DNA of 64,000 nt from Bradymonadales bacterium (GTDB lineage Bacteria; Bdellovibrionota; UBA2394): positions 77,013 to 141,012 of the forward strand of contig REDG01000024.1 in NCBI GenBank assembly GCA_007693605.1. The letters run 5' to 3'. The notes below the pieces were generated by a model, which saw only the letters and a program-made list of their open reading frames with translations, was not told the origin of the DNA and did no database searches. A program made the translations under genes and the position numbers. Positions within the stretch are counted from its first letter, which is position 1, and each line of letters begins with the position of its first letter. This document shows, in pieces, positions 12,418 through 55,491 of this stretch.

Positions 12418-15400
12418 TTAAAGCCCCAAGATATCTCTTGCTTCGTCGCCCAAGAATTCTTGGGAATCGGGATCGATCTTTATAAGCTTCTCCAACAGCG
12501 CCTTCCATCGAGCTTCCTGAGGGCCCGCAGAAAAATACTCCAATGCATATTGCTGCTCCAAAAGCGCTCCCACAGGCCCGGGGGCGTAGGACATCATTTC
12601 GATAAGAAGCTCATCAATCCCTTCAGCACGGAAAAGGCCCTTTGTCTCAAATACTTCCTGAAACCTTCGTGGCTGGGTTCGAACCAATGTTCTCAGCTCC
12701 TGCTTTTGTTGTTCGGTCAAAACAATTTGTTCTTCCGAAAAATTGTTGATTCTCTCCAATCGTTCTCTCTCTTGACGCCTAAGCTCTGCCTCTTGTTCCC
12801 TTCTCTTCGCTTCCTCGCGCCTCTTAGCAAGATCTTGGTCATAGGCCCTTTTAGCCTCCCTAACCTGAGCATCAAAGGCCTCAAACTGCGGCAGACTCTC
12901 AAGCTCGTCATTCTTATTGGACCGAATAGCTTGATAACTTGTAATCAGTGAAGCCGAACCTGGAAAGGCTGGCGGGTGGCCGTGTTTTTCAAGAGTCTCC
13001 ATATACCTTCTTATCCGCGTTACCGGATCACTCACCGTATCGGCCTCCAGTATCGACAGCTCGTAGTAAAGCTTGGCATCCGGCGAAAGAGTCGCCAGCT
13101 CCTCTCGTGAAAGTATGAAGCGCTTCTTTATGCGAGTCACCAAAAAGTAATTGTGCTTGTCCGGTAGCCTGATAAACGGAAGTCTTTCAATCGGGTGATT
13201 TTTAGCATATCGATTCCAGTCTGAGGCGAAAGCCCCAATCTGCCAAAGAGCTTCGTAGAAGCTGTCCATGAAATCCTCCCCCAAAATCTCCAAAAGTTGA
13301 TCGTAAACACCACCAGAACCAGGGTAGGCATACTTTAGGCGCAGATGTTCGACATAGCGGTACACTTCAGTATTTCGATATCTAGATGCCAGCTCAGACA
13401 TTTCAATATTCGGTTCTCGTTGAAGCGTAACTGACAGCCACAAGATAAAACCATCCACGGTCCTGTCTGAAAGCTTCTGACTATTACGGAAGGACTTTAG
13501 GGCTTGTAAGGCATTGTCGTTCAAATGGCTTTTGAATTCAACATCAGCCAACACGGCCGTGATTGAACTCCTTGAAGCTGCTGCACTCTCCCTAAAAAAC
13601 TCAGATATCGCCGAGTAAGCAATCTCTGGATTTACTCGTTGAATCAATCTATTGAAGCTTCTGGCTTCAGCAAGGGCCAAGCTGTCCATAGGTTTACCAG
13701 CCCCATCGAGATAGCCCTCTTCCTGAAGCAACAACAGCAAGTCCTCAGAAGCATTCTCTAGAAACCTCGATTCCTTGTACTTTAAAGCAATCTGATTTCT
13801 TAGCGCACTCGGCAGTCTACTGCGGGGAGGGAGAATAATCGGATCGCCTGCCTCCAAAAGCTCCTCAATATACTGATTGGCAAGGAGTGCTACCCCTACC
13901 CCTCCTCTTCCTCTATCCTGAATCAGCTTCAGGGCGGCTCTACCTGCTGCGTTTAGTTCACTAAGAAAGGCTTCTTCTTCCATATACTGCCGCACCTGGC
14001 GCCGAAGCCTGCCCTCGGAGTCTCGACCTCTTGGGGCTCTCACTCGGCCTTCCTCCAGTGAAATATTCAGTGCAAAGGTGTTTAGCTCGCGCGCCACCCC
14101 TATAGGCGAAGTCTTGGCATCTGAGCCCCAGAACAGTTGAAGCTCCTTTTCAAATTTTTCCAGCCAAGCTCGATACTCAGCCTCTGTCAAAGGAAGCTGA
14201 TCTAAGGCGCTCAAGAAGGGGTCCATCTCAGCCTCAGTTCCAGCATCATCAGCAGAGGCAGCCACGGACGGATATCCACCGGCTACAGTCTCAAACTCAT
14301 TCTCGTGTTCAAAAACTCGACGGTGGTCAGGGTTAAGAAGCTGGCTCGCCACCAAGATCATATCTCGCAACCGCCGCTCGTCAATTTCCATGAAGGACAC
14401 GACTTCGACCCCCTCTTTGCCCTCATAGAGTCGCAAAACTCGACCCAAGCGCTGTAAAAACTGACGGGGAGCAATATTACGATTGAGGTCGACATACAAA
14501 GTCATGTCCGGAATATTGACTCCCTCGTCCAACATCCCAACGACGACCAAGAAGTCAATTTTTCCCTGCCTAAAGTCTGAGAGAATGAGGTCTGCGTTCT
14601 GTAGCTGAGAATGAAGAACCTCAAATCTTCGTTCAGGCACCACCGCCCGAAGCTCCTCGGTCATGGCTTCGGCCTCGTTAATGTTAGCCGCCGCCACAAA
14701 GCCGCGGCTATGCTTGTGAAACAGGGGACGAAGACCCCGAGCTACTCTTTGTCGATAGAGAGGATTGATTTGATGTCGCCCCCTCTCAGCGCCGATTGCC
14801 GAACCTAGGGCAACAAAGAATTCAGTCTCCGATTCAGTGTTACGAAGAAAGCTCGTTGCTCTTAGAAGGTGAACGCGATCAAAAGAACTCAGATCACCCG
14901 CCTTAATAGCAGACGCAAGTTGTGAGACCACACTATCTACCGAACGAAACAATCCATCGCTTCCATCCTTGAGAAAGTCTTCAGCTCGGTCTTCGTAGGC
15001 CCAAAATGCTTGGTTTCCAAAGAGATCTGCAATGTCGGTTTCTCGATGAAGAGGAGTTGCCGTTGTGCCGTAGAAAAACATCCTGTTATTACTCTGAGAA
15101 ACGAGATCTTGAAGAACGGGAACGATTCCCTCCGCACCGGCGTGATGAGCCTCATCATACACAAGTGTCGCCAGAGCCCCCGCCATGAGACTCGTTCGTG
15201 ATTCCACTTGTTCAGGATCGCCGAGCATCGATGCTTTAAAACTCTGAGTCGTCGTCAGCAAAATGATCGGCACATCCGAAGCCTCCACGAGCTCGAGAAG
15301 CTCTTCGATGCTCTGTCGGCCGTACTCATCTCCCCAACGAAGAATCTTGAATTCTCCACCCGCCTCATTTCGGCCCTGCAAAGAGCGCTTCAGATCTTCA

Positions 15401-16230
15401 GCATCAGCCTGAAGTTGTGCGACGAGACTATTCTGATCGGCAAGCACCAAATGAAGTCTGCGATCCGCTTCTAACAAGCGTCGCATCAAAACCCGCTTCA
15501 AAACTTCTGTCTTGCCTGTCCCCGTGGGTGCTACAAACAAAAAGCGATTGAAAGACCCGCTCTCGGTTGCTGCCACTTGAGCAAAGCGATCAAGCTGACC
15601 CTGAACGGCCTTATCGGCTTCTACTTGAACGCCTTTGAGAATAAAATCCGGTTCACCCAATTGACCGCGCTCTTTAACCGCTCGACTCGAGTACAAATGA
15701 GGGTGCAGATTGTGCCCCTCAAAAAGCCTCCGAATCAGATTAGACATTCGAACATCATCATAGAGAAAGTCATAGTCTTCGTAAATTTTGAGGGTAATCT
15801 CGTGAGGGGAAGAAGAAATCTCTGGCAAAGCATACCCCGGCACAAAAAGAAATCTCACATCTTTCGACAAGTCACCAAAGTTCGTGAAAACAACACAATT
15901 CTCCTCGACGCGACATGGTCGAGGAGTTTCTAGACCACTCATGATCAGGCGCCTGCCCACGACGGGCATCACTACCTTGGTAATGAGTTCGCGTTGCCTG
16001 TCACTCAAACTGGCTAGCGAAGAATGTGGGTGCCTATCTATGAGATCCGAAAGGATTTTGTGGCAGGCTTCTGGGCTCAGCAAATGATTAGCTAAGCCGA
16101 ATTGTTTGAACTGAGATGACCCCGCACCCTCCCCCGCATCATGGGCGAAGATTTGCTGACCAACAAAAAAACAGCCCATCATCAGCAGAAGGCTTGTGAA
16201 AAAAAGCAGTCTGGCTCTATCTAGTCTCAT
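12418..16230 (-). CDS. SF2 DEAH-box helicase (type III restriction Res-like core) with an N-terminal signal peptide and a long helical C-terminus
   Basis: APTGTGKT, YDEAHH, GTTATP, MLDEGVNIP, QRLGRVLR; N-terminus MRLDRAR-LLFFTSLLLMMGCFFV-GQQIFA. Confidence 0.85.
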   Translation of the reverse strand: MRLDRARLLFFTSLLLMMGCFFVGQQIFAHDAGEGAGSSQFKQFGLANHLLSPEACHKILSDLIDRHPHSSLASLSDRQRELITKVVMPVVGRRLIMSGLETPRPCRVEENCVVFTNFGDLSKDVRFLFVPGYALPEISSSPHEITLKIYEDYDFLYDDVRMSNLIRRLFEGHNLHPHLYSSRAVKERGQLGEPDFILKGVQVEADKAVQGQLDRFAQVAATESGSFNRFLFVAPTGTGKTEVLKRVLMRRLLEADRRLHLVLADQNSLVAQLQADAEDLKRSLQGRNEAGGEFKILRWGDEYGRQSIEELLELVEASDVPIILLTTTQSFKASMLGDPEQVESRTSLMAGALATLVYDEAHHAGAEGIVPVLQDLVSQSNNRMFFYGTTATPLHRETDIADLFGNQAFWAYEDRAEDFLKDGSDGLFRSVDSVVSQLASAIKAGDLSSFDRVHLLRATSFLRNTESETEFFVALGSAIGAERGRHQINPLYRQRVARGLRPLFHKHSRGFVAAANINEAEAMTEELRAVVPERRFEVLHSQLQNADLILSDFRQGKIDFLVVVGMLDEGVNIPDMTLYVDLNRNIAPRQFLQRLGRVLRLYEGKEGVEVVSFMEIDERRLRDMILVASQLLNPDHRRVFEHENEFETVAGGYPSVAASADDAGTEAEMDPFLSALDQLPLTEAEYRAWLEKFEKELQLFWGSDAKTSPIGVARELNTFALNISLEEGRVRAPRGRDSEGRLRRQVRQYMEEEAFLSELNAAGRAALKLIQDRGRGGVGVALLANQYIEELLEAGDPIILPPRSRLPSALRNQIALKYKESRFLENASEDLLLLLQEEGYLDGAGKPMDSLALAEARSFNRLIQRVNPEIAYSAISEFFRESAAASRSSITAVLADVEFKSHLNDNALQALKSFRNSQKLSDRTVDGFILWLSVTLQREPNIEMSELASRYRNTEVYRYVEHLRLKYAYPGSGGVYDQLLEILGEDFMDSFYEALWQIGAFASDWNRYAKNHPIERLPFIRLPDKHNYFLVTRIKKRFILSREELATLSPDAKLYYELSILEADTVSDPVTRIRRYMETLEKHGHPPAFPGSASLITSYQAIRSNKNDELESLPQFEAFDAQVREAKRAYDQDLAKRREEAKRREQEAELRRQERERLERINNFSEEQIVLTEQQKQELRTLVRTQPRRFQEVFETKGLFRAEGIDELLIEMMSYAPGPVGALLEQQYALEYFSAGPQEARWKALLEKLIKIDPDSQEFLGDEARDILGL

Positions 16231-16560
16231 TCCTCTAGCGCGTCCGTCCTCAAGGTCCTCAAGTTTTGTACGAAGAGAGAGCCTTAGCTCAAACTAGCCT
16301 TCCCTACAACGGCTCAAGGCAAAGAAATTGCTGATTTGACGGCAGCGTTCTAGACAGCGAGAAACACTTCGAAAAATATGGCTTAAGTCACTGTAGTTAT
16401 TGACAATTCTGAGTTGCTCCCGTCTTCCGAAACGAGCCGAGTAAAGCTGACCTAGCGCCTCTACTCTAACTGCAAGGAAAGCGGGGTCTTGGGGCTGTCA
16501 AAGTGATCTTGGGCTCTCGGTTTTGACATTCTGAGTAAAAAGATCTAGCCATTCTGAGCA

Positions 16561-36904: not shown

Positions 36905-36953
36905 CTCCATTGCAGGGGACTCACCTGTAAGGCCTGGTCGAAGATTTTCTCCA

Positions 36954-40715: not shown

Positions 40716-40762
40716 AAGATTAGACTCTCACTTCAAAGAGAATGCTTCAATGCTCGAGTTGA

Positions 40763-41245: not shown

Positions 41246-42513
41246 GCATCTCCCAAATCAAGATTTGAGTTTAATGATCGATAATAGGCTCTAGCCGCTG
41301 GAAACACTCCCCCCAACCCACTGGCCACAAGAATGACCAGACTCAACCGCAGATCAGCAAGGCCTCCGAACTCGAAATTCAGCATTAGGCCGTATTGTCC
41401 CTCGGCCAAATGAACCCAGACAGGCCAAAGAAAAAGTAACAAGGCGTTGGCGACCAACAAACCCCCGACGCCAATCATGAGAGCCTCTGAAAGCACTAGG
41501 CCAAAAATGAAGCCTGGAGGCGCTCCCAACAGTCTCAAAACTGCAAACTCTCTCAATCGAAAGTCCAAAGACACCCACAAGAGAGTCAATGGGCTGACAA
41601 AGCAAAGCACCAGAACCAGCGCCAACACAAATGAAAATATTTGTTCAACCCACTCCATGACTTGCCACAGCTCTCGAAACACTTGGCCCGGCAGAATCGC
41701 GGTCAAAGCCTCCGCTTCGTAGTCATAGAACTCTCGCTGAAGAGACAGAATTCTTGCTCGATGCGTCTCCCTTAAGCCCACAAAAACAGCAGTGATGTAG
41801 TCTGGAGTCAATCGGTCCGGCACCGAAACCTCGGCCTCAAAAGGGGGGGCGCCGTCTTCCCAACCCAAATGGATCAGCTCCATAGCCTCAAGACTAATGA
41901 ATAAGGCTTGGTCCCACGGACTTCGAGTCTCTTCCAGAATCCCCACCACCTGAAACTGATGGTCGTCGTGCTCAAAAAATGAGTCCCCGCCTACTCCGTG
42001 TTGCAATATCACAGCGTCTCCAAGCTTGTAGCCCAATCGCTCTGCAACTCTGGCCCCCAAAACAACTCCGGTCTCATCTTGAAAAGTTTGACCCTCGCGA
42101 AAAGCAAAAGTCTGAGCTCTCCCGAAGCGAACGAACTCAAAAAACTCCCTCTTTGTCGCAACAGCTCTGTAGCCAAGATGTGAATCCCCAAGAGATATCG
42201 GGACTGCCCAGTTCACACTCGAATGAGAGGCGATTGCCTCGAAAGTTTTGTAACTCATCAGCGCAGTTGGGCTTCCCAGCCCAAAAACAGTATAAAGTAA
42301 AAGTTGAAGTGGACCCGACCGCCCCCCCACAATCAAGTCGGTGCCAGAGATGCTCCGCTGAAAACTCTCCTCTGCAGACTTTTGTGTGCGATCAAGTACG
42401 AGATAGCTGAAAGCGCTCAGTCCTAGGCAAAGGACGATCAGCAGAACGAGCGACCTACGGCTCCACAAGCTTCTAAATCCGAGCTGCCAAGCCTTCAAGT
42501 TCCAACCTTCCAA
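41242..42513 (-). CDS. ABC transporter permease (FtsX/MacB type)
   Basis: DLIVGGRSGPLQLLLY.VF, PISLGDSH.GYR, REFA.LR.LGA. Confidence 0.9.
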   Translation of the reverse strand: MEGWNLKAWQLGFRSLWSRRSLVLLIVLCLGLSAFSYLVLDRTQKSAEESFQRSISGTDLIVGGRSGPLQLLLYTVFGLGSPTALMSYKTFEAIASHSSVNWAVPISLGDSHLGYRAVATKREFFEFVRFGRAQTFAFREGQTFQDETGVVLGARVAERLGYKLGDAVILQHGVGGDSFFEHDDHQFQVVGILEETRSPWDQALFISLEAMELIHLGWEDGAPPFEAEVSVPDRLTPDYITAVFVGLRETHRARILSLQREFYDYEAEALTAILPGQVFRELWQVMEWVEQIFSFVLALVLVLCFVSPLTLLWVSLDFRLREFAVLRLLGAPPGFIFGLVLSEALMIGVGGLLVANALLLFLWPVWVHLAEGQYGLMLNFEFGGLADLRLSLVILVASGLGGVFPAARAYYRSLNSNLDLGDA

Positions 42514-43163
42514 TCTGATATCTCAATCTCTCGATCAAAATTGAATTCGAGATTCTGATGGCTCACCCAAATCAACGAGCGCCCGTCTTCACGCAGAAAC
42601 TCCTCTAAGACTCGGGTGAAAATCCCAGCATTCTCTTCGTCGAGTGAAGATGTGGGTTCATCCGCCAAAATCAAGGGGGCGCCCGAAGCCAGAGCGCGAA
42701 TCGCCGCCACTCTTTGCTGCTCCCCCTTGCTCAATTCGAATGGAAATCGTTTTGAAATCTCTTGGCTAAGCTGAAAGCTTTCAAAAAGCCTCAGCAGATC
42801 CTTGTCCTCTGTTCTCTGAGTCGACCAGTTTCTCACAAGTCTTATGTTCTGCAAAACCGATAGATAATTGATTAAGTTAAAGGATTGAAAGATGAAACTC
42901 ACGGATTTCGCTCGGAACTGATCTCTCTGAGAGCCTGAAAGCTTCTTCAAGTTCTCTCCGAACAACAGGAGGTCTCCCTCACTTGGCAACAGAACCCCAC
43001 TGATGAGTTTCAAAAAACTAGTCTTTCCGGCCCCACTCTTGCCGCGAAGCAGAATTTTCTCTCCCGCCCGCATCTCAAAGTGCGGAATATGAAGAAGGCA
43101 GGTCTTAGAATCCCAAAGGAACCTAAGGTCTCTACAGCTCAAGATAATCTCTGAGGACGACAC
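42495..43163 (-). CDS. ABC transporter ATP-binding protein
   Basis: GKSGAGKT, FQSFNL, LSKGEQQR, LADEPTS.LD. Confidence 0.9.
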   Translation of the reverse strand: MSSSEIILSCRDLRFLWDSKTCLLHIPHFEMRAGEKILLRGKSGAGKTSFLKLISGVLLPSEGDLLLFGENLKKLSGSQRDQFRAKSVSFIFQSFNLINYLSVLQNIRLVRNWSTQRTEDKDLLRLFESFQLSQEISKRFPFELSKGEQQRVAAIRALASGAPLILADEPTSSLDEENAGIFTRVLEEFLREDGRSLIWVSHQNLEFNFDREIEISDWKVGT

Positions 43164-43169
43164 CCATAA

Positions 43170-43198
43170 AAATTAACCGGCTTGTTCTGATATGACAA
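43170..43198 (-). promoter_or_regulatory. Sigma70 promoter, probably leaderless
   Basis: TTGTCA-17 nt-TAATTT, 6 nt before GTG 43163. Confidence 0.5.
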
Positions 43199-43232
43199 GT
43201 TGTGTGCTGAAAGTGATGGGGCTAGAGATCGG

Positions 43233-44237
43233 TCATTTGCCCGCAAGCATTCGGATGAAGCTTGTGAGCAAATTCTGATCGTACTCGTCGGAGAGCTTGC
43301 CCTGCATCAATTTAAGAGCCTCAACGGGACTGTGAGCAGACTGATACGGACGATGGGAAGTCATGCTGTCAAAGCAGTCGCAAATGGCCACAACCTTCGC
43401 CAGGGCTAGATAGTCTCCACTAAGCCTATAGGGATAGCCCGTTCCATTGGGCCTTTCATGGTGCATCAGAATAATCTTTTCCGCAAGTTCTGGCAGGGTG
43501 CTTGCCTTTCGGACAAGTTCATAGCCATACATCGGATGCTTCTCGACCTCTCGCCTCTCATCGTCGGTGAGTGCCCCTCGCTTATTTAAAATCTTCCGAT
43601 CAATCTTGGCTTTTCCGATGTCATGCAGAATCGAACCGATCCCAATGGATGAGAGTTCGTCATATGTCTTTAACCCAATCTCCCTCGCGAGAGTAATGGA
43701 GTAAGCCGAAGTGTGAATGGCGTGGGTGTACTCAGAAAAATCGGCAGTTGCCATTTTCATCAGCTCAAAGAAATTCTCTTTCTTGGTTAGGTAATCAATG
43801 GATGTCTCTACAATCTTAACCGAACGCTTCACACTCACGGAAGACTCCGGATTCTTGTAGATCGCCTCTAGAATGGTGGCCGAGGCTTCGTAAAGAATCT
43901 TCGACTTCTCTTTATTGCTGATTCTCGGCTCATTGATGATTCGAGTAAGATTGGACTCCAGAAATTGATGATGTTCCTGCTCGTTCTTGCACTGGATGAA
44001 GAGATGCTTGACACCAAAACCCTCAAGCTTCGTGACATCTTCTTTTTTCCAATAAAAGTTCTTGGGCCGAAATAAGAGGTACTGGCCTTGATAATACAGA
44101 AAGAGGTCGGCATCGATTTTTTCGCCGGGTTGATAGAGGTTGGAAGGGACTTGGTAGTACTCTAAGCCCAACTCTCCAACCGAATTGGATCTGACCTTCG
44201 CAGACGGCTCCACAGTTAAAATACTACCATCGTTCAA
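43233..44237 (-). CDS. HD-GYP domain protein (cyclic dinucleotide phosphodiesterase)
   Basis: LHDIGK, HHERPNGTGYP, D.FDSMTS.RPY; start codon uncertain. Confidence 0.9.
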   Translation of the reverse strand: MNDGSILTVEPSAKVRSNSVGELGLEYYQVPSNLYQPGEKIDADLFLYYQGQYLLFRPKNFYWKKEDVTKLEGFGVKHLFIQCKNEQEHHQFLESNLTRIINEPRISNKEKSKILYEASATILEAIYKNPESSVSVKRSVKIVETSIDYLTKKENFFELMKMATADFSEYTHAIHTSAYSITLAREIGLKTYDELSSIGIGSILHDIGKAKIDRKILNKRGALTDDERREVEKHPMYGYELVRKASTLPELAEKIILMHHERPNGTGYPYRLSGDYLALAKVVAICDCFDSMTSHRPYQSAHSPVEALKLMQGKLSDEYDQNLLTSFIRMLAGK

Positions 44238-44521: not shown

Positions 44522-47500
44522 CTACTTTTGCTCTTTTCCGTAGAGCCGACGCAAGCCATGCACCAGAGATTCATGAGCTTGGCTCAATTCAACAAAACCA
44601 ATCTTCTCAGAATGCCGCTCACTGAGCTCTTTGAAAGCTTCTGAAAGTTGGGTCATTCCTCCTGAGAGCCCCGCCCCCTGGGGATCGATATGAGCATAGC
44701 CGTAATGCTCCACCCGTTCGGCCAGGGCGCTGATCCACTGGAGGAAGTCTGGGTTCACCCCCTCACCGCCGTCTGAAAAGTGAAGAATGAAGCGATTCCA
44801 TTGTTTTCGAGGATGTTTCTCAAAAGACTGCTCAACAAGCTCCAAGGCGGCACGAGAACTCGTCCCACCGCCCAGGCTCCTTGTGAAAAATTCCTTTCTG
44901 TCTACTTCTTGAGCGTCGGTATCGTAGATATAGAATCTTTCTTCTAGATAGGGGTACAAAGTCCTTAGAACGGCAGAAACATAGGCAACCATTTGTCGTT
45001 CAATCGCTCGATGTTCTGCAGACATACTTCCAGAGGTGTCTGCCACATAAAAGATGACGGCATCAAAGTCGGGCTTCTGCTCCATTCGGCGATTAGAAAC
45101 AACGAAATCTTCGGGCTCTGCATACATCATCCCAATCTCCAAAAGCTCGTCATCCGTTTTTTCTGTGTGGTCTTTACCTTGGGCCTGAAGCGTCATCATT
45201 CCTCGAATCACAAGAGCTTCTGCGGTCTCCATATCTTTCCGCGTCCCATCCATTTGACGGAGCCTTCCCCGTCTTCTCTTGACCTCCGTCGGATTTCGAC
45301 CGTCCACCTTTCTCTGGAGATTTCGAAGCTGAATACCCTCAGCAATGATCTTACCAAAAAGCTCAATGGGTATATCAACGGCTCCTTCGCCTGACGCTGT
45401 TCCCCCTGGGGCAGTTTGGTCGGGATCTCCAGAATCGGATTCTCCCTCTTTTTCCTCCCCTTCAGAACCCTGTTCAGTCCCCTCCCCTTCTCCCTCAGAG
45501 CCCTGGCCAGAACCCTCATTTTCCGGAATGGGAAATAGATCTCCGGGTCGATAATGCCCGCTTCCAATATTGAGATCGAGATCTAGCAAATCAGATGGCA
45601 CTAGGCCCTCCACTGGCCGACCCAATGCTGGAAGCACTCCTTCTTGCATCGTCTCAACAGGAGTTCTCTTCATGGTCTGCAATCGAAAGCGCCGAATCTT
45701 TTGATCCAAGCGAAACTGAGGAAGCTCCGGAGTCACTTGAACTCTGACTTTCTTTCCTCCCGCCAAGGTTTTTACCGGCCACTTTCCTTCTGCCACCAAT
45801 CTAAAAATCTCAGCAGAGCGATTTCTGACAAAGTCTTGATATCGCATAACGCTCGAGGCCGCTGTGGTCGCTGCCCGTGAACTCTCGAAAACCTCAACCG
45901 CTGGGGGATGATTCAGCTCCATAGCCTGTGACACCAACTGATTAAAGCGTTCAGAGTTCTCTGACTTCGAATTGCCAATGGATAGATCAAACAGATAGCT
46001 GTTTAGACTCTCCTGTCCCCATGCCTCCAATCGCTCTCTAAAGGCTTCTTCCTCAGTTTCAATTCGAACTTCTCCTGTGGGATCAACAATCACAGCCATT
46101 TCAAACAAATCTCGAGTGCCCTTAATCGGATTTTTTACATCGACCGAGCCAAACCACATGCTCGACCCAAAACCTTCGAATCGAACAGGCCTTCCAAAGT
46201 ATTCTTTAGATAGCAGATAGGCCATTTTCACGATCGACTCTAGGGTAAGTGGAGTGAGCTGTGTCATTTCATGTCGAAGAACAACGAGGCCTGTCTTTTT
46301 GTCTTTAAAGTCTTTCAGATAGACCTGTGGAAAATGATGATCTAGATCGGCCACCGCCTTCGCGATTCGTCTGACGATTCTTTTCGGGTCTCTACTAATC
46401 GCAATATTGGCTTTTTCTCCGTAACCAATCGGATCGACACCATGCTTTGCCTCTCGGTAGAGAAAAAGGTTGTGTTTTTCAACCCAGGCAGCGTCTAAAG
46501 CCATCTGAACAAAGCTGTAGTCATTGAACCTGGAAATGATGTTTTCCGTCGCCCACTCGATGAATTGTAGGTCTTGCTCTATCTGAGACAATCCGGACAG
46601 ATCATTCGCCTCAAAGAATCGATCTCTCACACGAAGCCAAGCCTGAAGCCCTAGCCAATAGGGATTGGATAAATCTTGACGAGTGACGGTCGCATTGAGT
46701 GCCGCGAAGTCCATGATGTTCTGGTCGGTAAAATAGGGCGTATGTGAAAGAACCACAAACTGCATCAAGACGGCGAAACCTTCGTTCATGATTTTCGTAT
46801 TCACAATGCCAGGCCCTACCCGATGAACTCTCTCAAAATGTCGAATGATCTCCCTTCGATAAGACTCTGTCTCCTCCGGAAGGTTCTGCGCCAGAAACTG
46901 CAGAATGGCTTTGGTCTCTGTTCTCGGGAATCGATGACTCGGCCTCGAAGGAGCCTCTTCTTGAAAGCCGAGTGGGCCCTCTGTTGCTTTTGCACGAGGT
47001 CGTTCATCTCTTTCGACCATCTTGAAGGACTCTGGAGGCTCAAAGCTAGCTCGGGCATAGTCTTGAAGCCCTGTCAGACTGTAGAGAGTTTGGTAGAACC
47101 ATGAAACGGCCTCGAAACCATAGTTTTCATAGGCTCGAGAGACGGCGGTAGAGAGGGCCTCAGAGTCTCGAATCCGATCTCCATCCCTTGAAAGTAAGTA
47201 GGGGCTAGAATTCGAAAAATGCAGATGCCCTGCCACATGCGCGTAGACGAGAAGGGTTTCAGAAAACCGATTGGTGTCTCTGACAATCTGTACATCACTG
47301 TCTTGCCCCTTTTCAACGAACTCCAGTATTCCCCCAGCCCTTGCCGCATTGCTTTCAACATCTCTTCCCCCAATCCAATGAACAACCGGCTGACCAAAAC
47401 TGGAAGTCAGAGCGGCCATATCGCTTCCATTGACGGACTGAATCACCATATCAGGAATTCTTAAGCCCAACTTTAGGGCGATATCTTGATAGATCAATTT

Positions 47501-47677
47501 GGCAGCTTTCTCGTATTCTGAAGCAAGACTTGAATCTCTATCGGATGTCCAGACTCGGATCTTTGGAATGGTAAGCTTGCCAACAGCATCGGCACACTTC
47601 CAATGTGCTTCTGCTCTTCCTGCGCACAAAGCAAAACAAAGGATCGCTACTGTGAACGCCCAAGTTCGTTGATCCAT
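44522..47677 (-). CDS. Signal-peptide SpoVR/YcgB-YeaH (DUF444, vWA) fusion protein
   Basis: SpoVR motifs YAHVAGHLHF, TKIMNEGFA, NPYWLG; YeaH motifs Gly/Glu-rich linker, AVIFYVADTSGSM (MIDAS), FF....GGGT, HFSDG; N-terminus MDQRT-WAFTVAILCFALC-AGRAEA. Confidence 0.85.
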   Translation of the reverse strand: MDQRTWAFTVAILCFALCAGRAEAHWKCADAVGKLTIPKIRVWTSDRDSSLASEYEKAAKLIYQDIALKLGLRIPDMVIQSVNGSDMAALTSSFGQPVVHWIGGRDVESNAARAGGILEFVEKGQDSDVQIVRDTNRFSETLLVYAHVAGHLHFSNSSPYLLSRDGDRIRDSEALSTAVSRAYENYGFEAVSWFYQTLYSLTGLQDYARASFEPPESFKMVERDERPRAKATEGPLGFQEEAPSRPSHRFPRTETKAILQFLAQNLPEETESYRREIIRHFERVHRVGPGIVNTKIMNEGFAVLMQFVVLSHTPYFTDQNIMDFAALNATVTRQDLSNPYWLGLQAWLRVRDRFFEANDLSGLSQIEQDLQFIEWATENIISRFNDYSFVQMALDAAWVEKHNLFLYREAKHGVDPIGYGEKANIAISRDPKRIVRRIAKAVADLDHHFPQVYLKDFKDKKTGLVVLRHEMTQLTPLTLESIVKMAYLLSKEYFGRPVRFEGFGSSMWFGSVDVKNPIKGTRDLFEMAVIVDPTGEVRIETEEEAFRERLEAWGQESLNSYLFDLSIGNSKSENSERFNQLVSQAMELNHPPAVEVFESSRAATTAASSVMRYQDFVRNRSAEIFRLVAEGKWPVKTLAGGKKVRVQVTPELPQFRLDQKIRRFRLQTMKRTPVETMQEGVLPALGRPVEGLVPSDLLDLDLNIGSGHYRPGDLFPIPENEGSGQGSEGEGEGTEQGSEGEEKEGESDSGDPDQTAPGGTASGEGAVDIPIELFGKIIAEGIQLRNLQRKVDGRNPTEVKRRRGRLRQMDGTRKDMETAEALVIRGMMTLQAQGKDHTEKTDDELLEIGMMYAEPEDFVVSNRRMEQKPDFDAVIFYVADTSGSMSAEHRAIERQMVAYVSAVLRTLYPYLEERFYIYDTDAQEVDRKEFFTRSLGGGTSSRAALELVEQSFEKHPRKQWNRFILHFSDGGEGVNPDFLQWISALAERVEHYGYAHIDPQGAGLSGGMTQLSEAFKELSERHSEKIGFVELSQAHESLVHGLRRLYGKEQK

Positions 47678-50600
47678 CGATCACACTTCCCTTCAAAGCC
47701 TTTGATTCTCTCTTCTGAACTCGCGGGGGCATCAGCCCTAAGTATCGAGATCATTCCTAAAATCAGACTCAAGTCGACCGAGCTTAAAATCGAATCTTTC
47801 GCATCAAACACAAAGCTCTGAACGAGAGGCGATTGGGCCACCGACATATCTCTCGTGATACTATCCAAAATTTTGATACTAAATCCCGTGATGCGCGACC
47901 AATTGAGCCGAGAAACTGAACGGTCGAGCGCGATGAAAAATACTCGAAACAAATCATAGTAGTTGAAATCAGAAACCGCTCCCGCCTCCCGGCTTCGCAC
48001 ACTTAAGAAGGTATCAAGAAAGTTCTTGAGGCTGGCCAAGACGGCCTGCCCGACTTCCTTTGGTAAATTTGTCTGCTCCTTTTGGTTCTGTAGCCAGTCT
48101 TCAATCGAGGGTCTCGTCTGTAAATCCTTAAGCCGCAGATAAAAAGCTGCCAAGCCTTCGAGAAGGGCCTCCAGTTCCGCAACCTTGTCCCCAAGTACAA
48201 TCGACACCTCACTCGGTTGATTCTCGGAATCTCCCCCTCCGAAGAGGTCTAGGTCGACACTCGATCCGTAGTGCAATTCTGGCAGTGAATGATAGTTCTC
48301 TCGACTTCTCTGCCTCGTCACAACGGCATCATATGCCCGTTTAAACTCCTGAACTGAAAACTCATCAGTCACTCCAAACTCGCTAGGCTGAAATCTGATC
48401 TCCTCTAGACTCAGTTCCTGATAGAGATTCAGATGGTCCTCTAAAGCATTGGCGAGGGCTCCAACGATTTGAAGGTTTTTTGCCTTTTGCGACATGAGGT
48501 CGATGTCCGATCGAACGGCGTCTAGAAAGACCTCAAACAACTTGAGCCTCAGATTGTTCATGAGATAGAGACTAAACTCGATTTGACCCGCACTGTTGGT
48601 GCCAACGGGGAGTGCTTGAAAGTGCTCTTGGACAAAGCGCGTGATCACTGAGCCCTCGTCGCCGCCTGAAACCGCATGAGAGCCCGTAGTGGATCGATTT
48701 GAAATCCGCTCAGAACTGAAACGCGGTCGAATCAAAAAGAGCTTCGTCTCATTCCCTCTCGAGAGTCCCATCAAGGAACTTGCTGCGGAAGACAGAAAGG
48801 TTCGTGCATCAACCTCTGGCGTATTCTTAATAATGGAGGACAATACACTGGGGTGCACAAACACGAGTTGATGGTGGTTGTTGAAATGCGTCTGTCGACT
48901 GGGCAAAAGAGCGGCGTTGAGTGCAGGCCCTTTCGATGCAAAAGGAAAGCGATTCAAACTGATCAAATCGCCAAAGCGTCTTAAAAAGGACTCTTCAAGT
49001 GTAAGATCAGGAGTCGAGAGTGAGGCTAAAATCAATTCTGTATCTGTTGGGTGGTGCGGATTCTTGGCAAACTGCCGAAGCTTCTCAGGGTTCGACTTGG
49101 GGTTGAGCGCAATCAGAACACTGAGATTTCTCGTTGGCCGCTCTCGACCTTCAAGATCAACGAAGGTCTTCTCATCTTGTAGAGCTCTAATTCTCTGAAT
49201 GAAATACTCTCGCGCTTCAGGGGGGGCTAAATGAAAGTCATCAAGAAAGATAAGCCCCCTCTCGCCCCCCTCTGCCGTGAGAAAGCTTTCAAAGGCTTTC
49301 TTGGCTTGCTCAAAATTCAACATTCGCTCTGAAGAATTGTTTTCCTTAGAATTCGAAGTCTGCCCAAGGACTTGCGCCATATTCAAAACAAAGGCCAACT
49401 TTGTAGACTGGGGAGGCTCGCCAGTCATTGAAAATATTTCAAACTCAAGAGCGGATATCAGGGTGCGAATCGCCGTGGTCTTGCTCGTACCCGTCCCCCC
49501 ATAGATGATCGCGGACGACTTGAGATTCCTAACCTGATCGGTAGAGAGTTGAGCTAAAAGCACTTGAATGAGTCTTTGCTTAAACTCAATTGGGCCGGTG
49601 TAACCGTGAGTCTGCCACAGGTGAATAATATCCTTTCTTGAAAGAATTTTGAGATGATCCTCATCGTCTAGAAGATCCAGGTTGACGGGCATAGGAAAGA
49701 CTCTTGCCAGAGACTGTTCAACCAGTCTGAGATCGAGCACTCGTCTCTTGCGAATCCTCTCACTGGTGGTCATCTGAAACAAAAGCTCACTTAGAACCTT
49801 CAAGAAACTCTCAAAAACAGGCATTCCATTGTCGAGAGCCAACTTCTCTGACCGATTAATCAGATAGGTGAGAATTTTATCTTCTAGCTCTTCCACACTA
49901 TAGGATTTCTTCTCAAAGTCCGCCACCAGGCCTTCGAGACTGACCTGAAACTGACTCATGCGGACACCGGGGTGAAGCAGTAGATTCTTTCTCGCGAATT
50001 CCAACCTGAGCTCTGAGGTGGGGGGACTGAGTTTGACGACTTCAAAGAGATCAAAGACACCCATCTCATTCTCGATCGGGTGCGCTTCACGAAGCTTTTC
50101 CCAACTCTCTTCTGTTCCAATCAAGAGGGTTGATATGGGAGAGTTCGAGTCTGCAACAAAGTCAGCGGCGTCGACCCGCTGCCCCCCTGTTGCTAAGAAA
50201 TACAAAATTGAGGGCGCCTGACTGAGCCTCTCTGGTTGGCGTTCTAGATCTTCACCGTCTAGCGAAACACTATTGCCAATTGCTCGACTAAGAATGAGGT
50301 CTGATGTTTCGTTCTGAGTCTTTTCCTGACGGGTCGATACGCGAGCAATCTTATCGATCGATTCGAGCAAGACCGGCGCTTTCTGATGGGTCCGAGACTC
50401 AGAAATCATATGTCTGATATTCTCGAGAACCTCCCTTTGAGAGATCGGCTCCTCGATCTTGGGCAGCGCATAGAGCTGATACCTCCCGCTACTTTTGTGC
50501 CAAGGGCCTCCGTGAGCAGCATCTCGATGTCGATAAGCAAATGGATATTGTCCCGCATATCGAAGCAGATCTGGCGAAACAATGAGAACCACCTTTCTTG

Positions 50601-53037
50601 CCTTTGTGCGAATATCTGCCAAATCATTCAGCAAATCTGGATACTCCGGAAAGACATCAGTCTGATATTCAGCGGCATTTCTGGCTCTGCGGCGCTCAGG
50701 ATCAGACTCTACCCAATCGCGAACAAGCCAATTGGAGTAAAAGCGCCCTTGAGACTCAGACAACGCCCCATCGCCCAAAGCAGCGGGTCGCAATCGAAGC
50801 TTTGGGGCGTTCCTTGTTAAGATTTGCTGACCATCGGACAGACGAATCACCCGGAAGTTAGGGTCTATGAGATCTCTTCCCGGATCCTGTGAGAAGTAGA
50901 TCCCCGCATCGGGAGAGACAAAAATTCTGGAAAGAAATTCCTCTTTGGTTAGGGCCCCCTCAATATTGATCAAAGCCTTTGTGCCGTGGATCTCGAAGCG
51001 CGACTGCTCGACATTTCCAGAATTTGACTTAATCCTTATCTCCGACAGTATAAGATATCGAATGCTTGTCTCGATGGCCTCTCCCTCCGACTGGCTAATC
51101 GACAACGCAAGTTTGAGTCCGTCAGAAGCGCTCATTCCCACCGAGGGAAACAGATGAATATCTCGAATATCTTCAAAACTCGAGTCGAGATCAATCTCAA
51201 TTGGGGAGTCAATCATCTTGGCCTCTGAATCAACGAGCAGCAATACAAGACGAGCTTTTGAAGCCGCATCTGGAAGATCGGTCAGATAGAATCCAACGAT
51301 CTGAATCTCTGTTAGGGAGTTCCAACCCGTCTTCACCTTGAGATCAATGGCCAGATTCATTTCGTTTCGAATAAGGCTGGGTAGATATCCAAGCGCGGAG
51401 TCAACAGAGTCATCACTCTTCGTAAAGTAGACTCCTGTTGGGTTGGGGCCCTCCGGTGGTCGTTCAAATTCAAAAAAACTGACTCCATCTGAAAGTGAAA
51501 CTTCTCTAAGGGGTTCCAAGAAGTGATAGCTCAATCGGCCAGTCTCAAAAGTTGTCAAGACATCAACAGTCGCTGCGGTCTTCCGAAATTTTCTTTGAAA
51601 GTCTTCTGAAGAGAGGCCGACCGGCGTTTCAATATCAAAGAGCAATCGCTCTCCCGCAGCGATGATCATTCTCCTGGCCAAATCTTCTTGGGGAAAGAAT
51701 TTGGGGCTTAGGTGTTGGACTCGGTGAATCTGAGATCGCCCCTCTAGATCTGAGATTTCATAAGCAACGGTCTCTGCATCTCCGGATTCAAACTGCCAAG
51801 AAACCACCAGAACTTTGGCTTCAGCAGAGTAAGCAGCACTAAGGTCTACTAGATCGGTCGCTGCTGGTCGAATCGGCTCAATCTCAATGCTCTGCTGGCG
51901 AGACCTCTGTACATAGGTGAACAAAACCCTCTCATCCCTCAAAACAACCAGACCTAAGCCGCTGCGAGCAGAACTGGCTACACGGCGAAAGGCCAGTTGA
52001 GGATGAGGCGCCGAAGTGGAGATCACATAGGGACTCGTCTCATCCAAAACATTTTCTTTACCTGCAAGCCACTGCACTCCTCGGGCAGCATCGTAGTAGG
52101 CATAGATGGGAGGACCATCTGAGCCGAGACCCACCCTCAAGGGGTGTCTCACCTCGATACGATCATGGGGAATGGATATGAGAGGCAAATAGGGATAGAT
52201 CCTCCAAAACTCTTGTAGATCTGAAAGTTGATCTCCCGATTTCAGCGCCAATCGAAAAAACTCGCTCGGACTCAATCGCTCCATTAAGTCACGAAGGCTC
52301 TGCTTCCACTCAACCACAAAATCTGCCTCGTTACCTCTCTCTTGAACAGCCATCTGTAAGAGATTTCTGGAAACAAGAGCCGAGTAATTATCATGAAAAA
52401 ACATGCGGCCGAATAGCTCTGAATGATCTGAAAACTCATAGTCTAAAAGCACTGGATCTCGGATGGGCCTGATTTTTCCAGACTCGAAACTCTCTTTGTT
52501 AAAAATAACGGCAAATGTAAGACCAGAACCATGAATTGAGTTTTTGGTCTTCATGGAAACGAGAACAACATAATGAGGCTCAGCTCCCATCTTAATATCA
52601 GTCCCCTCAATTGAGACATCTTCAATGTCCTCAATCATCGGTAGGGGGATCTTCTGGCCAAGTATCGGGTCTCGTATTTGATCGATCTCAAAAATACTTT
52701 GAGGATCCTCGTCTCTCGATCGGGTGGAGAAAAAGGTGAGTCGTCCATCCAAGATACAAAGACTTTGGAAGTCATTCGCAACCCTGGGGAACTCGATGAC
52801 ATGCGAAAGTCCTCCGGTCACAGATTCTAAAAGAACCTCCCCCTCTAGAGCTAGGCGCCACGACCTTCCGTCTCGAATATAAATTCCTGGACTTCGACTA
52901 GATGTTCCCATTTCATCCGGCACAGCGATCAGGTAGGGAGTCCCTGCCTGAAAGGGCGGCTCCTCTTCTCTGGTCTGAGCTGTTGACTCAAACCCGATCA
53001 GGCCAAAGAGAAGAGCTGCAAGATGCGCTCTTATCAT
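47647..53037 (-). CDS. Giant signal-peptide protein with a beta-rich N-half and Clp-like AAA+ module(s)
   Basis: IIYGGTGTSKTT (variant Walker A), LIFLDDFH (Walker B), IALN sensor, SFLRRF Arg finger; an upstream degenerate NBD-like segment (LLIGTEESW...FEVVKLSPPT); N-terminus MIRAH-LAALLFGLIGF-ESTA. Confidence 0.7.
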   Translation of the reverse strand: MIRAHLAALLFGLIGFESTAQTREEEPPFQAGTPYLIAVPDEMGTSSRSPGIYIRDGRSWRLALEGEVLLESVTGGLSHVIEFPRVANDFQSLCILDGRLTFFSTRSRDEDPQSIFEIDQIRDPILGQKIPLPMIEDIEDVSIEGTDIKMGAEPHYVVLVSMKTKNSIHGSGLTFAVIFNKESFESGKIRPIRDPVLLDYEFSDHSELFGRMFFHDNYSALVSRNLLQMAVQERGNEADFVVEWKQSLRDLMERLSPSEFFRLALKSGDQLSDLQEFWRIYPYLPLISIPHDRIEVRHPLRVGLGSDGPPIYAYYDAARGVQWLAGKENVLDETSPYVISTSAPHPQLAFRRVASSARSGLGLVVLRDERVLFTYVQRSRQQSIEIEPIRPAATDLVDLSAAYSAEAKVLVVSWQFESGDAETVAYEISDLEGRSQIHRVQHLSPKFFPQEDLARRMIIAAGERLLFDIETPVGLSSEDFQRKFRKTAATVDVLTTFETGRLSYHFLEPLREVSLSDGVSFFEFERPPEGPNPTGVYFTKSDDSVDSALGYLPSLIRNEMNLAIDLKVKTGWNSLTEIQIVGFYLTDLPDAASKARLVLLLVDSEAKMIDSPIEIDLDSSFEDIRDIHLFPSVGMSASDGLKLALSISQSEGEAIETSIRYLILSEIRIKSNSGNVEQSRFEIHGTKALINIEGALTKEEFLSRIFVSPDAGIYFSQDPGRDLIDPNFRVIRLSDGQQILTRNAPKLRLRPAALGDGALSESQGRFYSNWLVRDWVESDPERRRARNAAEYQTDVFPEYPDLLNDLADIRTKARKVVLIVSPDLLRYAGQYPFAYRHRDAAHGGPWHKSSGRYQLYALPKIEEPISQREVLENIRHMISESRTHQKAPVLLESIDKIARVSTRQEKTQNETSDLILSRAIGNSVSLDGEDLERQPERLSQAPSILYFLATGGQRVDAADFVADSNSPISTLLIGTEESWEKLREAHPIENEMGVFDLFEVVKLSPPTSELRLEFARKNLLLHPGVRMSQFQVSLEGLVADFEKKSYSVEELEDKILTYLINRSEKLALDNGMPVFESFLKVLSELLFQMTTSERIRKRRVLDLRLVEQSLARVFPMPVNLDLLDDEDHLKILSRKDIIHLWQTHGYTGPIEFKQRLIQVLLAQLSTDQVRNLKSSAIIYGGTGTSKTTAIRTLISALEFEIFSMTGEPPQSTKLAFVLNMAQVLGQTSNSKENNSSERMLNFEQAKKAFESFLTAEGGERGLIFLDDFHLAPPEAREYFIQRIRALQDEKTFVDLEGRERPTRNLSVLIALNPKSNPEKLRQFAKNPHHPTDTELILASLSTPDLTLEESFLRRFGDLISLNRFPFASKGPALNAALLPSRQTHFNNHHQLVFVHPSVLSSIIKNTPEVDARTFLSSAASSLMGLSRGNETKLFLIRPRFSSERISNRSTTGSHAVSGGDEGSVITRFVQEHFQALPVGTNSAGQIEFSLYLMNNLRLKLFEVFLDAVRSDIDLMSQKAKNLQIVGALANALEDHLNLYQELSLEEIRFQPSEFGVTDEFSVQEFKRAYDAVVTRQRSRENYHSLPELHYGSSVDLDLFGGGDSENQPSEVSIVLGDKVAELEALLEGLAAFYLRLKDLQTRPSIEDWLQNQKEQTNLPKEVGQAVLASLKNFLDTFLSVRSREAGAVSDFNYYDLFRVFFIALDRSVSRLNWSRITGFSIKILDSITRDMSVAQSPLVQSFVFDAKDSILSSVDLSLILGMISILRADAPASSEERIKGFEGKCDRWINELGRSQ

Positions 53038-53040
53038 TCT

Positions 53041-55491
53041 TTATCTCCCCGGCTGCTTTTGACTTCGTAGCGCCATTGATCTCTGAATCGCCTCAATGGC
53101 GATTCTTGCGGACTGAGGATTGTATCCGAAGTCTTGACTCAAGGTGTTTAACAGACCGTCTGCCCGCATCTGAAGATCTGGATCTTTGACCCTGCCAGTT
53201 CCCGTCGCCGCCGAAAGCAAAGAGCTCAAACTCGCATTCTCTCGAGCCAACTGTAAGTGAACATAATACTGTGTGATCGCAGCAAGAAATTCCGGATGAA
53301 TTGCAGAATCATCGGTAGAGGAATTAACACTCCATGTAAACCAAGTTCCAACCTCCTGAAAATCAAACGCACGGCCTGTAAGCTCTTGCCAAGCCCTCTT
53401 GACTCCGTCCAGTCTTTCAAAATTAATCGGAGTCTCTGCGCCCGTCGAAGGATGAAGATAATGAGTCGCCTTGGCATCACCCGATAAGGCCGTCATCTCG
53501 GCGATCATTTCATCGTAAACGAGCGAAACAAATTCCTCACCCATCTGCCTCATATAGGCCTCACTCAGATCCCTCTCGTACTTTGGAATAATCCATCGTT
53601 GATGAATCTCTTCAGCAAGAAGAATGAGATGTCTTTGATCTTCTGGCTTAAGCCCTCGATATCGATCATCGTAAACCAAGTCCCGAATCACTTGAATGAT
53701 GAGTTCCGGAGTAAGAGTGTTGTGATAGGTCGAACTGGCTGCCAACGAGAGGGCTGCCGTCCACATTCGAGCGGCAACCCGATGGTCTAAACCAAAAGTC
53801 CCCTCATCCCCTAGTCGCGACAAAGCCATCAAGTTGTGCATTCTAGCTCTTTCAATCTGAGTCTCTCCGAAATAGACTTTCAGACGGCTGATTCGATCCA
53901 CCAAGTGGATATCAGAGTCCTTCACCATCGGAAATTGCTGAGCGAGACGAATATCATTCAGATTGAACTGCATTCGAGACAGAGACATGATTGCAGCCAT
54001 GAACTCCAAACTATGCGGCCCGATCTCAATAGGAGAGTGCTCAGGGTTTCCATAAGCCAACGCGAATCTTCGGTGTGTTGTAGCAGGCCTCTTTCCAAAT
54101 TCTCTGCTTGGAACGAGCCGGAAAACAGACTTGCCCCTCACTTCGACCCAGTCTGCCCCAGACTCTCCCAATGGCCGCATCCAAAGCGGATTCGTTTCCA
54201 TCGCCAGAAGCTGCATATTAGAAATCGGATCGATCAGAGAATTCATAGGGATAGGCAGAATTCTGCTGAGCAGAGGAGAGTTGGGATCTCTTTCCTCTAG
54301 CTCTTTTAGCTCCCTCGTATTCGTGGCTCCAAGGAATAGAATGTCAATCGGTACCGTGACCCCCGCCGCAATATCAACTCGATGACTAGAGACCAAATTC
54401 AATAGTTTTGCAAAGAAAGCCGGATGATTCTTTAAGAGCTCATCGAAGTAGATCACGCCGCCATTGGCAAGCGGAATGATTCCATAGTCCCAGGCAAAGG
54501 GATCATTGATGCCCGCCCTCATCGCATGAATCGCATTGGGTCGGCCAAAGATTTCCGAATCTCTTGGCTCGTCGCCTTGTTGTGCAATCAGGGGAAGCGT
54601 GGTGGAATCACCTAGAATCAGCCTCTTGATCCGAATATGTTTTGAAAGAACGCTTACAATTTCTTCATCACTAAGAGTCTCGCCCTTTTCCGCTTCGTAG
54701 TGGGCAATGATTTCTGCTCGAATTGCAGCTGACTTTGGATTCGGCTGCCGTTTGGGGTTAGGATCTTGATGAAGTTCAATATAAACTCTTGATCGATGTT
54801 CTGCAAGAATGGCCTCCTGATACGAGTCCGGAAGAAGACTAAATGGAGAGTCGTTGATTGGATCTGCAAATGCTCTTGGGCTTTCCGCCTTCACAAACTC
54901 TGACGGAAGTCGATTTTTTAAACTGGGAATTTTGGACAGATCGACCCACTCAAAAGTGTAGGCAAAGTGCTTTGGAACTCTCATCGTCGCGTTCGACATA
55001 GATGTTCTCAGATGCTCAAGAATAAAGGACTTTCCACTGCCGGGTACGCCGACCAACATGGGCATATCTCTGCCGGAAGCGCCTCCCGAGGCTGCGGCCT
55101 TGATTGCTTCGACTAGCTGAGCGGCCGCCTGCTCTTGACCCACTAAAAATTTACCATCCGCTAGATCGTGAGCAGTGGAGAGTAGATTGTAGACCTTATG
55201 CTTCCGGCTACCCGTAAAGGGATCGACTTTCTCTTCGACGCCAGCGGAAAGAAACAAATGGAGTAGCGTTTGTGGGCTCGACATGATGGTCCATGGGTGA
55301 TTGGCAATGAAGCTCTCGGGACCAGCCTCAAGAAGAACCTCAAGGTCATGTCGCTCCTTATCAGCGACTCGACGATAATCGATGGAGTCCCCCCGGATGA
55401 CGATGTTTTCAACACTGACCCGACACTTATCCGATGCATCAACTCCTGCGATCAAACCGGCTAATACAAAAAAATAGGCAAAATTTTTCAC
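53041..55491 (-). CDS. Signal-peptide PrkA/YeaG-family AAA+ ATPase
   Basis: LVGVPGSGKS, DPFAWDYG...ANGG..YFDELLK, GATN, L.SRI, IGPHSLE.MA....LSR, EG.FG, GYN..SA; probable start GTG 55491 after a purine-rich RBS (ORF track 55518); MKN-FAYFFVLAGLIAG-VDA. Confidence 0.85.
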   Translation of the reverse strand: MKNFAYFFVLAGLIAGVDASDKCRVSVENIVIRGDSIDYRRVADKERHDLEVLLEAGPESFIANHPWTIMSSPQTLLHLFLSAGVEEKVDPFTGSRKHKVYNLLSTAHDLADGKFLVGQEQAAAQLVEAIKAAASGGASGRDMPMLVGVPGSGKSFILEHLRTSMSNATMRVPKHFAYTFEWVDLSKIPSLKNRLPSEFVKAESPRAFADPINDSPFSLLPDSYQEAILAEHRSRVYIELHQDPNPKRQPNPKSAAIRAEIIAHYEAEKGETLSDEEIVSVLSKHIRIKRLILGDSTTLPLIAQQGDEPRDSEIFGRPNAIHAMRAGINDPFAWDYGIIPLANGGVIYFDELLKNHPAFFAKLLNLVSSHRVDIAAGVTVPIDILFLGATNTRELKELEERDPNSPLLSRILPIPMNSLIDPISNMQLLAMETNPLWMRPLGESGADWVEVRGKSVFRLVPSREFGKRPATTHRRFALAYGNPEHSPIEIGPHSLEFMAAIMSLSRMQFNLNDIRLAQQFPMVKDSDIHLVDRISRLKVYFGETQIERARMHNLMALSRLGDEGTFGLDHRVAARMWTAALSLAASSTYHNTLTPELIIQVIRDLVYDDRYRGLKPEDQRHLILLAEEIHQRWIIPKYERDLSEAYMRQMGEEFVSLVYDEMIAEMTALSGDAKATHYLHPSTGAETPINFERLDGVKRAWQELTGRAFDFQEVGTWFTWSVNSSTDDSAIHPEFLAAITQYYVHLQLARENASLSSLLSAATGTGRVKDPDLQMRADGLLNTLSQDFGYNPQSARIAIEAIQRSMALRSQKQPGR

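Follow-up and report, generated by a model that had tools for sequence, protein, structure and literature searches.

The 64,000-nucleotide stretch analysed here, referred to below as the window, carries on its minus strand an operon that runs from 55491 to 44522 and encodes a PrkA/YeaG-type ATPase, a giant ATPase and a SpoVR-YeaH fusion protein. A helicase-like protein and a 198-aa protein are encoded farther along the same strand. The initial annotation had singled out four octamers, CRVSVENI, CADAVGKL, CHKILSDL and CDRWINEL, as copies of a motif C-x3-[VIL]-x2-[IL] on four unrelated enzymes with signal peptides. All four are present on the minus strand where it had placed them:

53041..55491, minus strand: exported AAA+ ATPase of the PrkA/YeaG type, encoded by the first operon gene (Pfam AAA_PrkA and PrkA)
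55435..55491, minus strand: predicted Sec/SPase I signal peptide of PrkA (from sequence, heuristic; hydrophobic core in 115 of the 130 homologues with a readable N-terminal part)
55402..55425, minus strand: N-terminal Cys tag of PrkA, CRVSVENI, at mature +4, the only Cys of PrkA
47647..53037, minus strand: exported giant ATPase, 1796 aa, AAA+ module and helical C-terminal domain (Pfam AAA match)
52978..53037, minus strand: predicted signal peptide of the giant ATPase (from sequence; in 9/9 fully read orthologues)
47662..47685, minus strand: Cys tag CDRWINEL near the C-terminus of the giant ATPase, 12 residues before its end
44522..47677, minus strand: exported SpoVR(YcgB)-YeaH(DUF444) fusion (Pfam SpoVR and DUF444; NCBIfam)
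47606..47677, minus strand: predicted signal peptide of SpoVR-YeaH (from sequence, heuristic)
47573..47596, minus strand: N-terminal Cys tag of SpoVR-YeaH, CADAVGKL, at mature +4, the only mature Cys
12418..16230, minus strand: exported helicase-like protein of superfamily 2 (Pfam; has motifs I, II, III and VI)
16144..16230, minus strand: predicted signal peptide of the helicase (from sequence, heuristic)
16042..16065, minus strand: N-terminal Cys tag of the helicase, CHKILSDL, at mature +27
11718..12314, minus strand: exported 198-aa protein (no Pfam or NCBIfam match)
12216..12239, minus strand: Cys tag of the 198-aa protein, CLDAIIAG, fitting the core C-x3-hydrophobic without the +7 residue

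PrkA most likely starts at the GTG at 55491, and the database record P0001 has 816 aa. The protein belongs to the PrkA/YeaG AAA+ family by its AAA_PrkA and PrkA C-terminal domains and its Walker motifs; it is a divergent member, with an AAA_PrkA score just over the cut-off although no single stretch passes. The canonical cytoplasmic PrkA/YeaG-YeaH-YcgB(SpoVR) system has the same domain families in one operon, from which the window operon differs by its signals, its tags, the SpoVR-YeaH fusion and the added 1800-aa ATPase. The genome of the window (G000) also has a canonical signal-less prkA-yeaH elsewhere. The Cys is indeed alone in PrkA and in mature SpoVR-YeaH, as had been claimed. The giant ATPase does carry its copy near the C-terminus, but has a second Cys at residue 94, and the helicase copy is present near the mature N-terminus, but its Cys lies about 27 residues past the predicted cleavage site and the mature chain has three Cys. 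The four enzymes come from different families; three of their genes share one operon, so they do not amount to four independent loci. The partial match noted in the 198-aa protein (CLDAI) proved to fit the true core of the motif.

Elsewhere in the window, a desaturase-ppk-ppx-ABC-HD-GYP block (36648-44237) adjoins the operon and has the same order in a second genome, G005. Its HD-GYP protein gave a near full-length match to Bd1817 (E 8e-13), the sixth of six matches. Two adjacent ORFs at 10370-11625, the second with an HNH domain at its end, resemble a split mobile HNH element. Rfam gave no match anywhere in the window.

The motif was counted across the proteome of G000 (2.19 Mb, 79 contigs, 90% complete). 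Among 1923 genes, our own heuristic scripts for genes and signals (not SignalP) gave 365 signal-peptide proteins without further membrane segments, from which 64 lipoproteins were removed to leave 301 predicted SPase-I proteins; the heuristic made false calls, e.g. Lon and an amino oxidase. The annotated pattern occurs within mature residues 2-30 of 16/301 exported proteins, three of them the discovery proteins, compared with 9/2174 interior windows (p 1e-9), 13/1207 non-exported proteins (p 2e-5) and, in 500 shuffles, a mean of 2.6 and a maximum of 8. Downstream of the first Cys of the mature N-end, hydrophobic residues are in excess only at +4 (39/77) and +7 (37/77), against about 30%. The enrichment expected by the initial annotation is thus borne out at the N-terminus and much less so at the C-terminus, where 5/291 exported proteins fit the pattern against 7/1946 interior windows (p 0.013), as many are seen in 5 of 500 shuffles, and exported proteins do not exceed non-exported ones (11/1152, p 0.34). 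The C-terminal excess being weak across the proteome, support for the C-terminal tag comes from orthologues.

Lone cysteines cluster at the ends of exported proteins. A single mature Cys occurs in 68 of these proteins; it falls within the first 30 residues in 36 of them and within the last 30 in 14, with 6.9 expected per end; non-exported proteins showed no terminal skew of single Cys. By a rule set after seeing the data, about 51/332 exported proteins are tagged (37 N, 14 C), with a chance level of about 1% per interior window. Each tagged protein has a single tag, on a free end of its mature chain, and among 59 loosely tagged proteins no case with tags at both ends was seen. According to PMC2823432, exported proteins normally lean towards even Cys numbers; here tagged proteins are odd in 42 cases and even in 17, and untagged ones odd in 57 and even in 75 (p 5e-4). 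In 25 of the 33 single-Cys tagged proteins the Cys lies 2-17 residues downstream of the predicted SPase I cleavage, and in the other 8 it is 5-17 residues from the C-terminus. Their signals look like Sec/SPase I signals, with a positive n-region in 29/33, Ala at -1 in 30/33 and Tat features in 0/33, counts that are partly circular under our own heuristic.

Conservation in homologues defined the tag more closely. A PrkA profile search listed 150 representatives; of 151 proteins examined, the N-terminal part could be read in 130, and 115 of these show a hydrophobic core. A Cys follows the core in 110/115, with none after the signal in the other 5/115. C-x3-[LIVMF] follows the signal in 100/115, within otherwise unconserved linkers, the +4 residue being Leu in 70; of interior 45-residue windows only 14/1890 fit. 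The Walker A pattern is found in 122/125 full-length homologues. Among exported PrkA orthologues the Cys is invariant in 9/9 while the flanks do not align, and the canonical signal-less paralogues have no tag. The giant ATPase is found in 31/301 genomes of the phylum, where the operon of three tagged genes is kept. All 30 fetched loci (30/30) have the C-terminal Cys tag, 7-20 residues from the stop. In an alignment of 29 sequences at 18-31% identity just two columns are invariant, one of them this Cys, which is accompanied by a conserved Phe at -4; no second Cys is position-conserved among nine full orthologues. SpoVR-YeaH shows C-x3-hydrophobic in 27/28 locus rows, the remaining row having no N-terminus; picking of the Cys required the +4 residue, and rows were then checked by eye. 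The Cys is invariant in 7/7 aligned SpoVR-YeaH sequences. The tag is also kept in 2/2 helicase orthologues and in both closest orthologues of a tagged M3 peptidase.

Read from these alignments, the conserved core of the tag is C-x-x-(h)-[LIVMF], and the +7 residue of the annotated pattern is a family-specific variant. The exact C-x3-[VIL]-x2-[IL] is enriched as proposed, but fits only 9/115 PrkA homologues; the Cys and the +4 hydrophobic residue are kept in orthologues, while the +7 spacing is confined to the family of the window. The idea of a portable lone-Cys tag usable at either terminus was upheld by both positional enrichment and conservation in orthologues, the two points on which the initial annotation had said it could fail. 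That of an amphipathic helix was not, the helical hydrophobic moment of tags not exceeding that of other C-x3-h sites (p 0.26).

Several minor observations concern the same proteins. The operon can be described as an exported second PrkA-YeaH-SpoVR copy plus an ATPase of 1800-2300 aa, kept together as an operon across 11 or more families within the phylum. Several SpoVR-YeaH orthologues (L123, L130, L132, L141, L144) have a His-rich stretch between the signal and the tag Cys. We found no case of the tag moving between termini among M3 peptidases (3 tagged, all C-terminal), and a search for sigma homologues with terminus switching in mind gave mostly RpoD. Word-based homologue searches returned almost no matches, and scans of named loci no relatives.

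The +7 residue changes in step on unrelated proteins. In the giant ATPase, tagged at its C-terminus, +7 is hydrophobic in 7/8 tags of the window's family and in 1/18 elsewhere; in SpoVR-YeaH, tagged at its N-terminus, the figures are 6/6 and 2/19. These counts omit three short giant tails, one duplicate locus, and one truncated and one mis-picked SpoVR row. In the proteome samples, +7 is hydrophobic in 7/12 tags of G003 and 1/12 of G028, and in 78% in G000. That unrelated proteins with tags at opposite ends change +7 together points to one shared partner, and we regard it as very probable that the tag is bound by such a partner; the change is a single lineage split, so that its p values overstate the case.

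Relatives were surveyed as samples of 120-400 kb from each genome. N-terminal C-x3-h is enriched in the samples of G003 (11/34) and G028 (11/58), and C-x-x-h-h in that of G015 (4/31). No tag enrichment was seen in the samples of G035 (79 exported proteins), G022 (86), G018 (22) and G077 (40). Single-Cys terminal tags number 33/291 in G000, 12/32 in G003, 3/54 in G028 and 2/31 in G015, all tag-positive, and 0/19 in G018, 1/70 in G035, 0/81 in G022 and 0/37 in G077. The small sample of G004 (26 exported proteins), with 1/24, places that genome on neither side. The tag is patchy within the phylum. Even Cys counts occur in 8/14 tagged proteins of G028 and 4/6 of G015.

To see which proteins carry the tag, 54 tagged candidates of G000 were picked by motif before annotation. 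Pfam matched 15 and left 39 without a match. Cytoplasmic-type domains were found in 9/54: sigma-70 regions (two proteins), DnaJ (two), NUDIX, GNAT, ATP-grasp, Pol-beta NTase and SLOG. The other matches were M3, HEAT, DUF5715, SBP_bac_5, S8 and a weak coiled coil, of which SBP_bac_5 and S8 are envelope types. Untagged exported controls matched in 18/31 cases, mostly to envelope families, and three of these are likely false signal calls or anchors. Further tagged proteins from relatives had no match in 29/35 cases. By their domain matches, then, the tagged proteins with known domains are mostly of cytoplasmic types. Sigma-70-like proteins with both signal and Cys tag were located in three genomes of the family:

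G000 C59:2834-3898: sigma-70-like protein, signal and Cys tag
G000 C19:49859-51409: sigma-70-like protein, signal and Cys tag
G000 C71:11999-14347: sigma-70-like protein, signal and Cys tag
L163:8404-9873: sigma-70-like protein, signal and Cys tag
L178:2137-3756: sigma-70-like protein, signal and Cys tag

NCBIfam recognised sigma-70-like regions in the three tagged G000 proteins (E 5.5e-15, E 7.2e-8 and one weak). The exported tagged sigma-70 proteins of G003 and G004 have regions 2 and 4, and that of G003 has regions 2, 3 and 4. Helicase motifs are intact in the tagged helicase. Exported G000 proteins with clear signal-less paralogues (PrkA, SpoVR-YeaH, M3, DnaJ and GNAT) are tagged in 5/5 cases by our own reading, the other 20 matches of this comparison being membrane kinases, envelope proteins or proteins wrongly called as having a signal. 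The sigma factors and the YeaG/YeaH/YcgB set suggest that the cargo acts in the cytoplasm of a bacterium. Tagged M3 peptidases do not add to the case for cytoplasmic action, since many relatives export M3 peptidases that have no tag. In a quick tree the tagged M3 proteins (L203, L204, L205) group on long branches, separate from the usual exported and cytoplasmic M3; the long branches may be joined falsely. A locus of G004 (L177:1700-3681) encodes two flagellin-like proteins with Sec-type signal peptides.

Structure models placed the tag in two different settings. In the AlphaFold model of PrkA (mean pLDDT 80), the core matches AAA+ domains, and residues 1-37 lie below 50, the tag within them being modelled as a low-confidence helix. 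In the C-terminal model of the giant ATPase (mean 85), the tag ends a confident helix (residues 381-390, pLDDT about 91); together with the conserved Phe at -4, this suggests that the tag may be part of the fold there. The giant C-terminal domain had no clear fold match (best Z 4.2). In Atlas searches AAA leads, with a score below 0.9.

The tag was compared with known Cys-containing signals. Lipoproteins, too, are exported with a conserved Cys close to the N-terminus, as part of the lipobox read by Lgt, LspA and Lnt. The tag Cys differs in that it lies either close to the C-terminus or 2-28 residues past the SPase I site, and in that the residues conserved with it follow the Cys and do not precede it; tags do not have [LVI][ASTVI][GAS] before a Cys that directly ends the h-region, and the 64 true lipoproteins of G000 form a separate class. 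The typhoid toxin CdtB-PltA is a two-step secreted AB toxin in which the enzyme chain is held on its carrier by one disulfide. Such toxins resemble the arrangement considered here in that Sec export is followed by a single intermolecular disulfide reducible in the target cytoplasm; they differ in that each enzyme has its own partner, and here one motif occurs on dozens of unrelated cargoes. The closest geometry is that of the mitochondrial MISS/ITS signal read by Mia40, described by Sideris et al. 2009 (PMC2806287) as a short portable peptide with a docking Cys and hydrophobic residues on one helix face, which in human COX17 stand at +3, +4 and +7 downstream of the docking Cys. Tags have the +4 residue throughout, +3 in 28/29 giant ATPase tags and 57% of PrkA tags, and +7 only in the window's family. 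In contrast to that signal, the tag is bacterial, stands after a Sec signal, has one unpaired Cys and shows no aromatic requirement. The twin Cx3C/Cx9C arrangement is absent, most tagged proteins having a single mature Cys or some other odd count, and no Mia40-like receptor was found in the families searched, thioredoxin_4 and VKOR. The resemblance to Mia40 substrates is one of geometry and not of homology.

We found no description of such a tag in the literature on the tag or on predator secretion, with supplements and subscription papers outside the scope; the word cysteine occurs 0 times in the main text of PMC11656739 and PMC12622784. As far as searched, the tag is undescribed.

The match to Bd1817 and the gene content suggest that this uncultured bacterium belongs to Bdellovibrionota and, by extension, that it is likely predatory. 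The following route would account for the tag. Cargo proteins are predicted from sequence to be exported by Sec, with cleavage of the signal. The +3 and +4 residues, and +7 in the window's family, would sit in a hydrophobic cleft on a single partner, leaving the Cys positioned to form a disulfide between the two, a step suggested by the odd Cys counts, the conservation amid unconserved linkers and the in-step change on unrelated proteins. The loaded cargo may then pass a second machine, for which a T2SS or a pilus system are those present. Finally, the type of cargo suggests that the reducing cytoplasm of the prey could free it where ATP, acetyl-CoA, DNA and RNA polymerase are available. We lean, if narrowly, towards this whole chain, in which a sorting tag takes some fifty Sec-exported proteins through a mixed disulfide with a periplasmic carrier to the prey cytoplasm. 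A wider version is somewhat more tentative, with a chance just short of even: that many uncultured Bdellovibrio-type bacteria deliver effectors in two steps, dozens of proteins exported by Sec (sigma factors, ATPase machines and helicases among them) being passed by a Mia40-like disulfide tag to a carrier that releases them in living prey for takeover of transcription and metabolism.

G000 encodes a VKOR-thioredoxin fusion, a DsbA-like lipoprotein, a T2SS, and type IV and Tad pilus genes. The T2SS genes include gspC, gspD and pseudopilins; GspG is also found in 4/5 comparison genomes, including G022 and G018 with tag-negative samples, and genomes with no tag in their samples have Dsb/VKOR genes too. 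No receptor or carrier emerged from paralogue families, CxxC lists or envelope proteins exclusive to tag-positive samples, a weak search since the samples span 5-15% of each genome. The lone Cys of the GspI pseudopilin was considered as a disulfide partner and rejected, being present in G000, G003 and G007 and absent in G028, G032 and G015. The VKOR-thioredoxin was likewise rejected as a dedicated loader by the T2SS operon, with which it is adjacent in G000 only, of 5 genomes; there its gene (L279:760-2933; G000 C61:29051-31230) is divergent from gspC.

Some of these observations could be explained otherwise. A periplasmic enzyme reading C-x-x-h-h might acylate or otherwise modify the Cys, so that the tag anchors proteins to a membrane or vesicle and not to a carrier. 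Such an enzyme would also be one shared partner and would explain the lone Cys, the use of either end and the in-step change, and S-acylation usually falls on a Cys beside hydrophobic residues. We nevertheless consider this unlikely: the tag does not form a lipobox, the Cys is set apart from the signal by charged residues and a linker of 1-27 residues, C-terminal copies cannot be Lgt substrates, no candidate enzyme was found, and anchoring alone would bring neither ATP nor RNA polymerase to the cargo. The dedicated translocon missing from our searches, the cargo mostly without known domains, and the ATP and nucleic acids that prey lysis would release all suit a sorting or holding tag whose cargo acts within the bacterium's periplasm, inside vesicles or in a medium that holds the contents of lysed prey. 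DnaJ domains, intact ATPase motifs and the sigma-70-like proteins that have regions 2, 3 and 4 need working bacterial partners, however, and action outside intact prey cytoplasm is in our judgement quite improbable.

Nor is sorting the only use of a terminal Cys. The three tagged genes form one operon kept in 31/301 genomes, tagged genes are often clustered and the tag helix of the giant ATPase is well modelled, all of which would suit tags that cross-link one cargo protein with another, in homo- or heterodimers such as the three operon products might form, or that complete a folded helix. Yet the same tag occurs on stand-alone small enzymes of unrelated folds, the PrkA tag is of low confidence and sits in a linker free in length and sequence, and separate pairs would not shift +7 together proteome-wide; cross-linking or structure without sorting is decidedly unlikely. 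The motif is short and some heuristic signal calls are false, which would favour a pattern due to chance, or hydrophobic N-termini acting as membrane anchors with the enzymes left in the cytoplasm. Enrichment and conservation far above controls already refute chance; as to anchors, the n-region is positive in 29/33 and charge more positive before than after the hydrophobic core in 30/33 single-Cys tagged proteins, a result the heuristic partly favours. Both taken together are highly improbable.

Delivery by a tag and carrier would bear on how bacterial predators move proteins into prey, an open question on which a 2025 review describes the experimental evidence, for secretion systems and enzymes, as limited (PMC12428579). 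With a five-residue tag, candidate effectors can be listed from sequence, about 50 in a 2.2-Mb genome and most of no known family, among which exported sigma-70-like proteins would be surprising interbacterial effectors. The tag could also serve as bait for fishing out its receptor and, if it suffices for routing, as a handle for protein delivery between laboratory bacteria. One 20-kb stretch of G028 (L154; G028:C1:710001-730000) consists nearly entirely of genes for exported proteins, at least 7 of them tagged.
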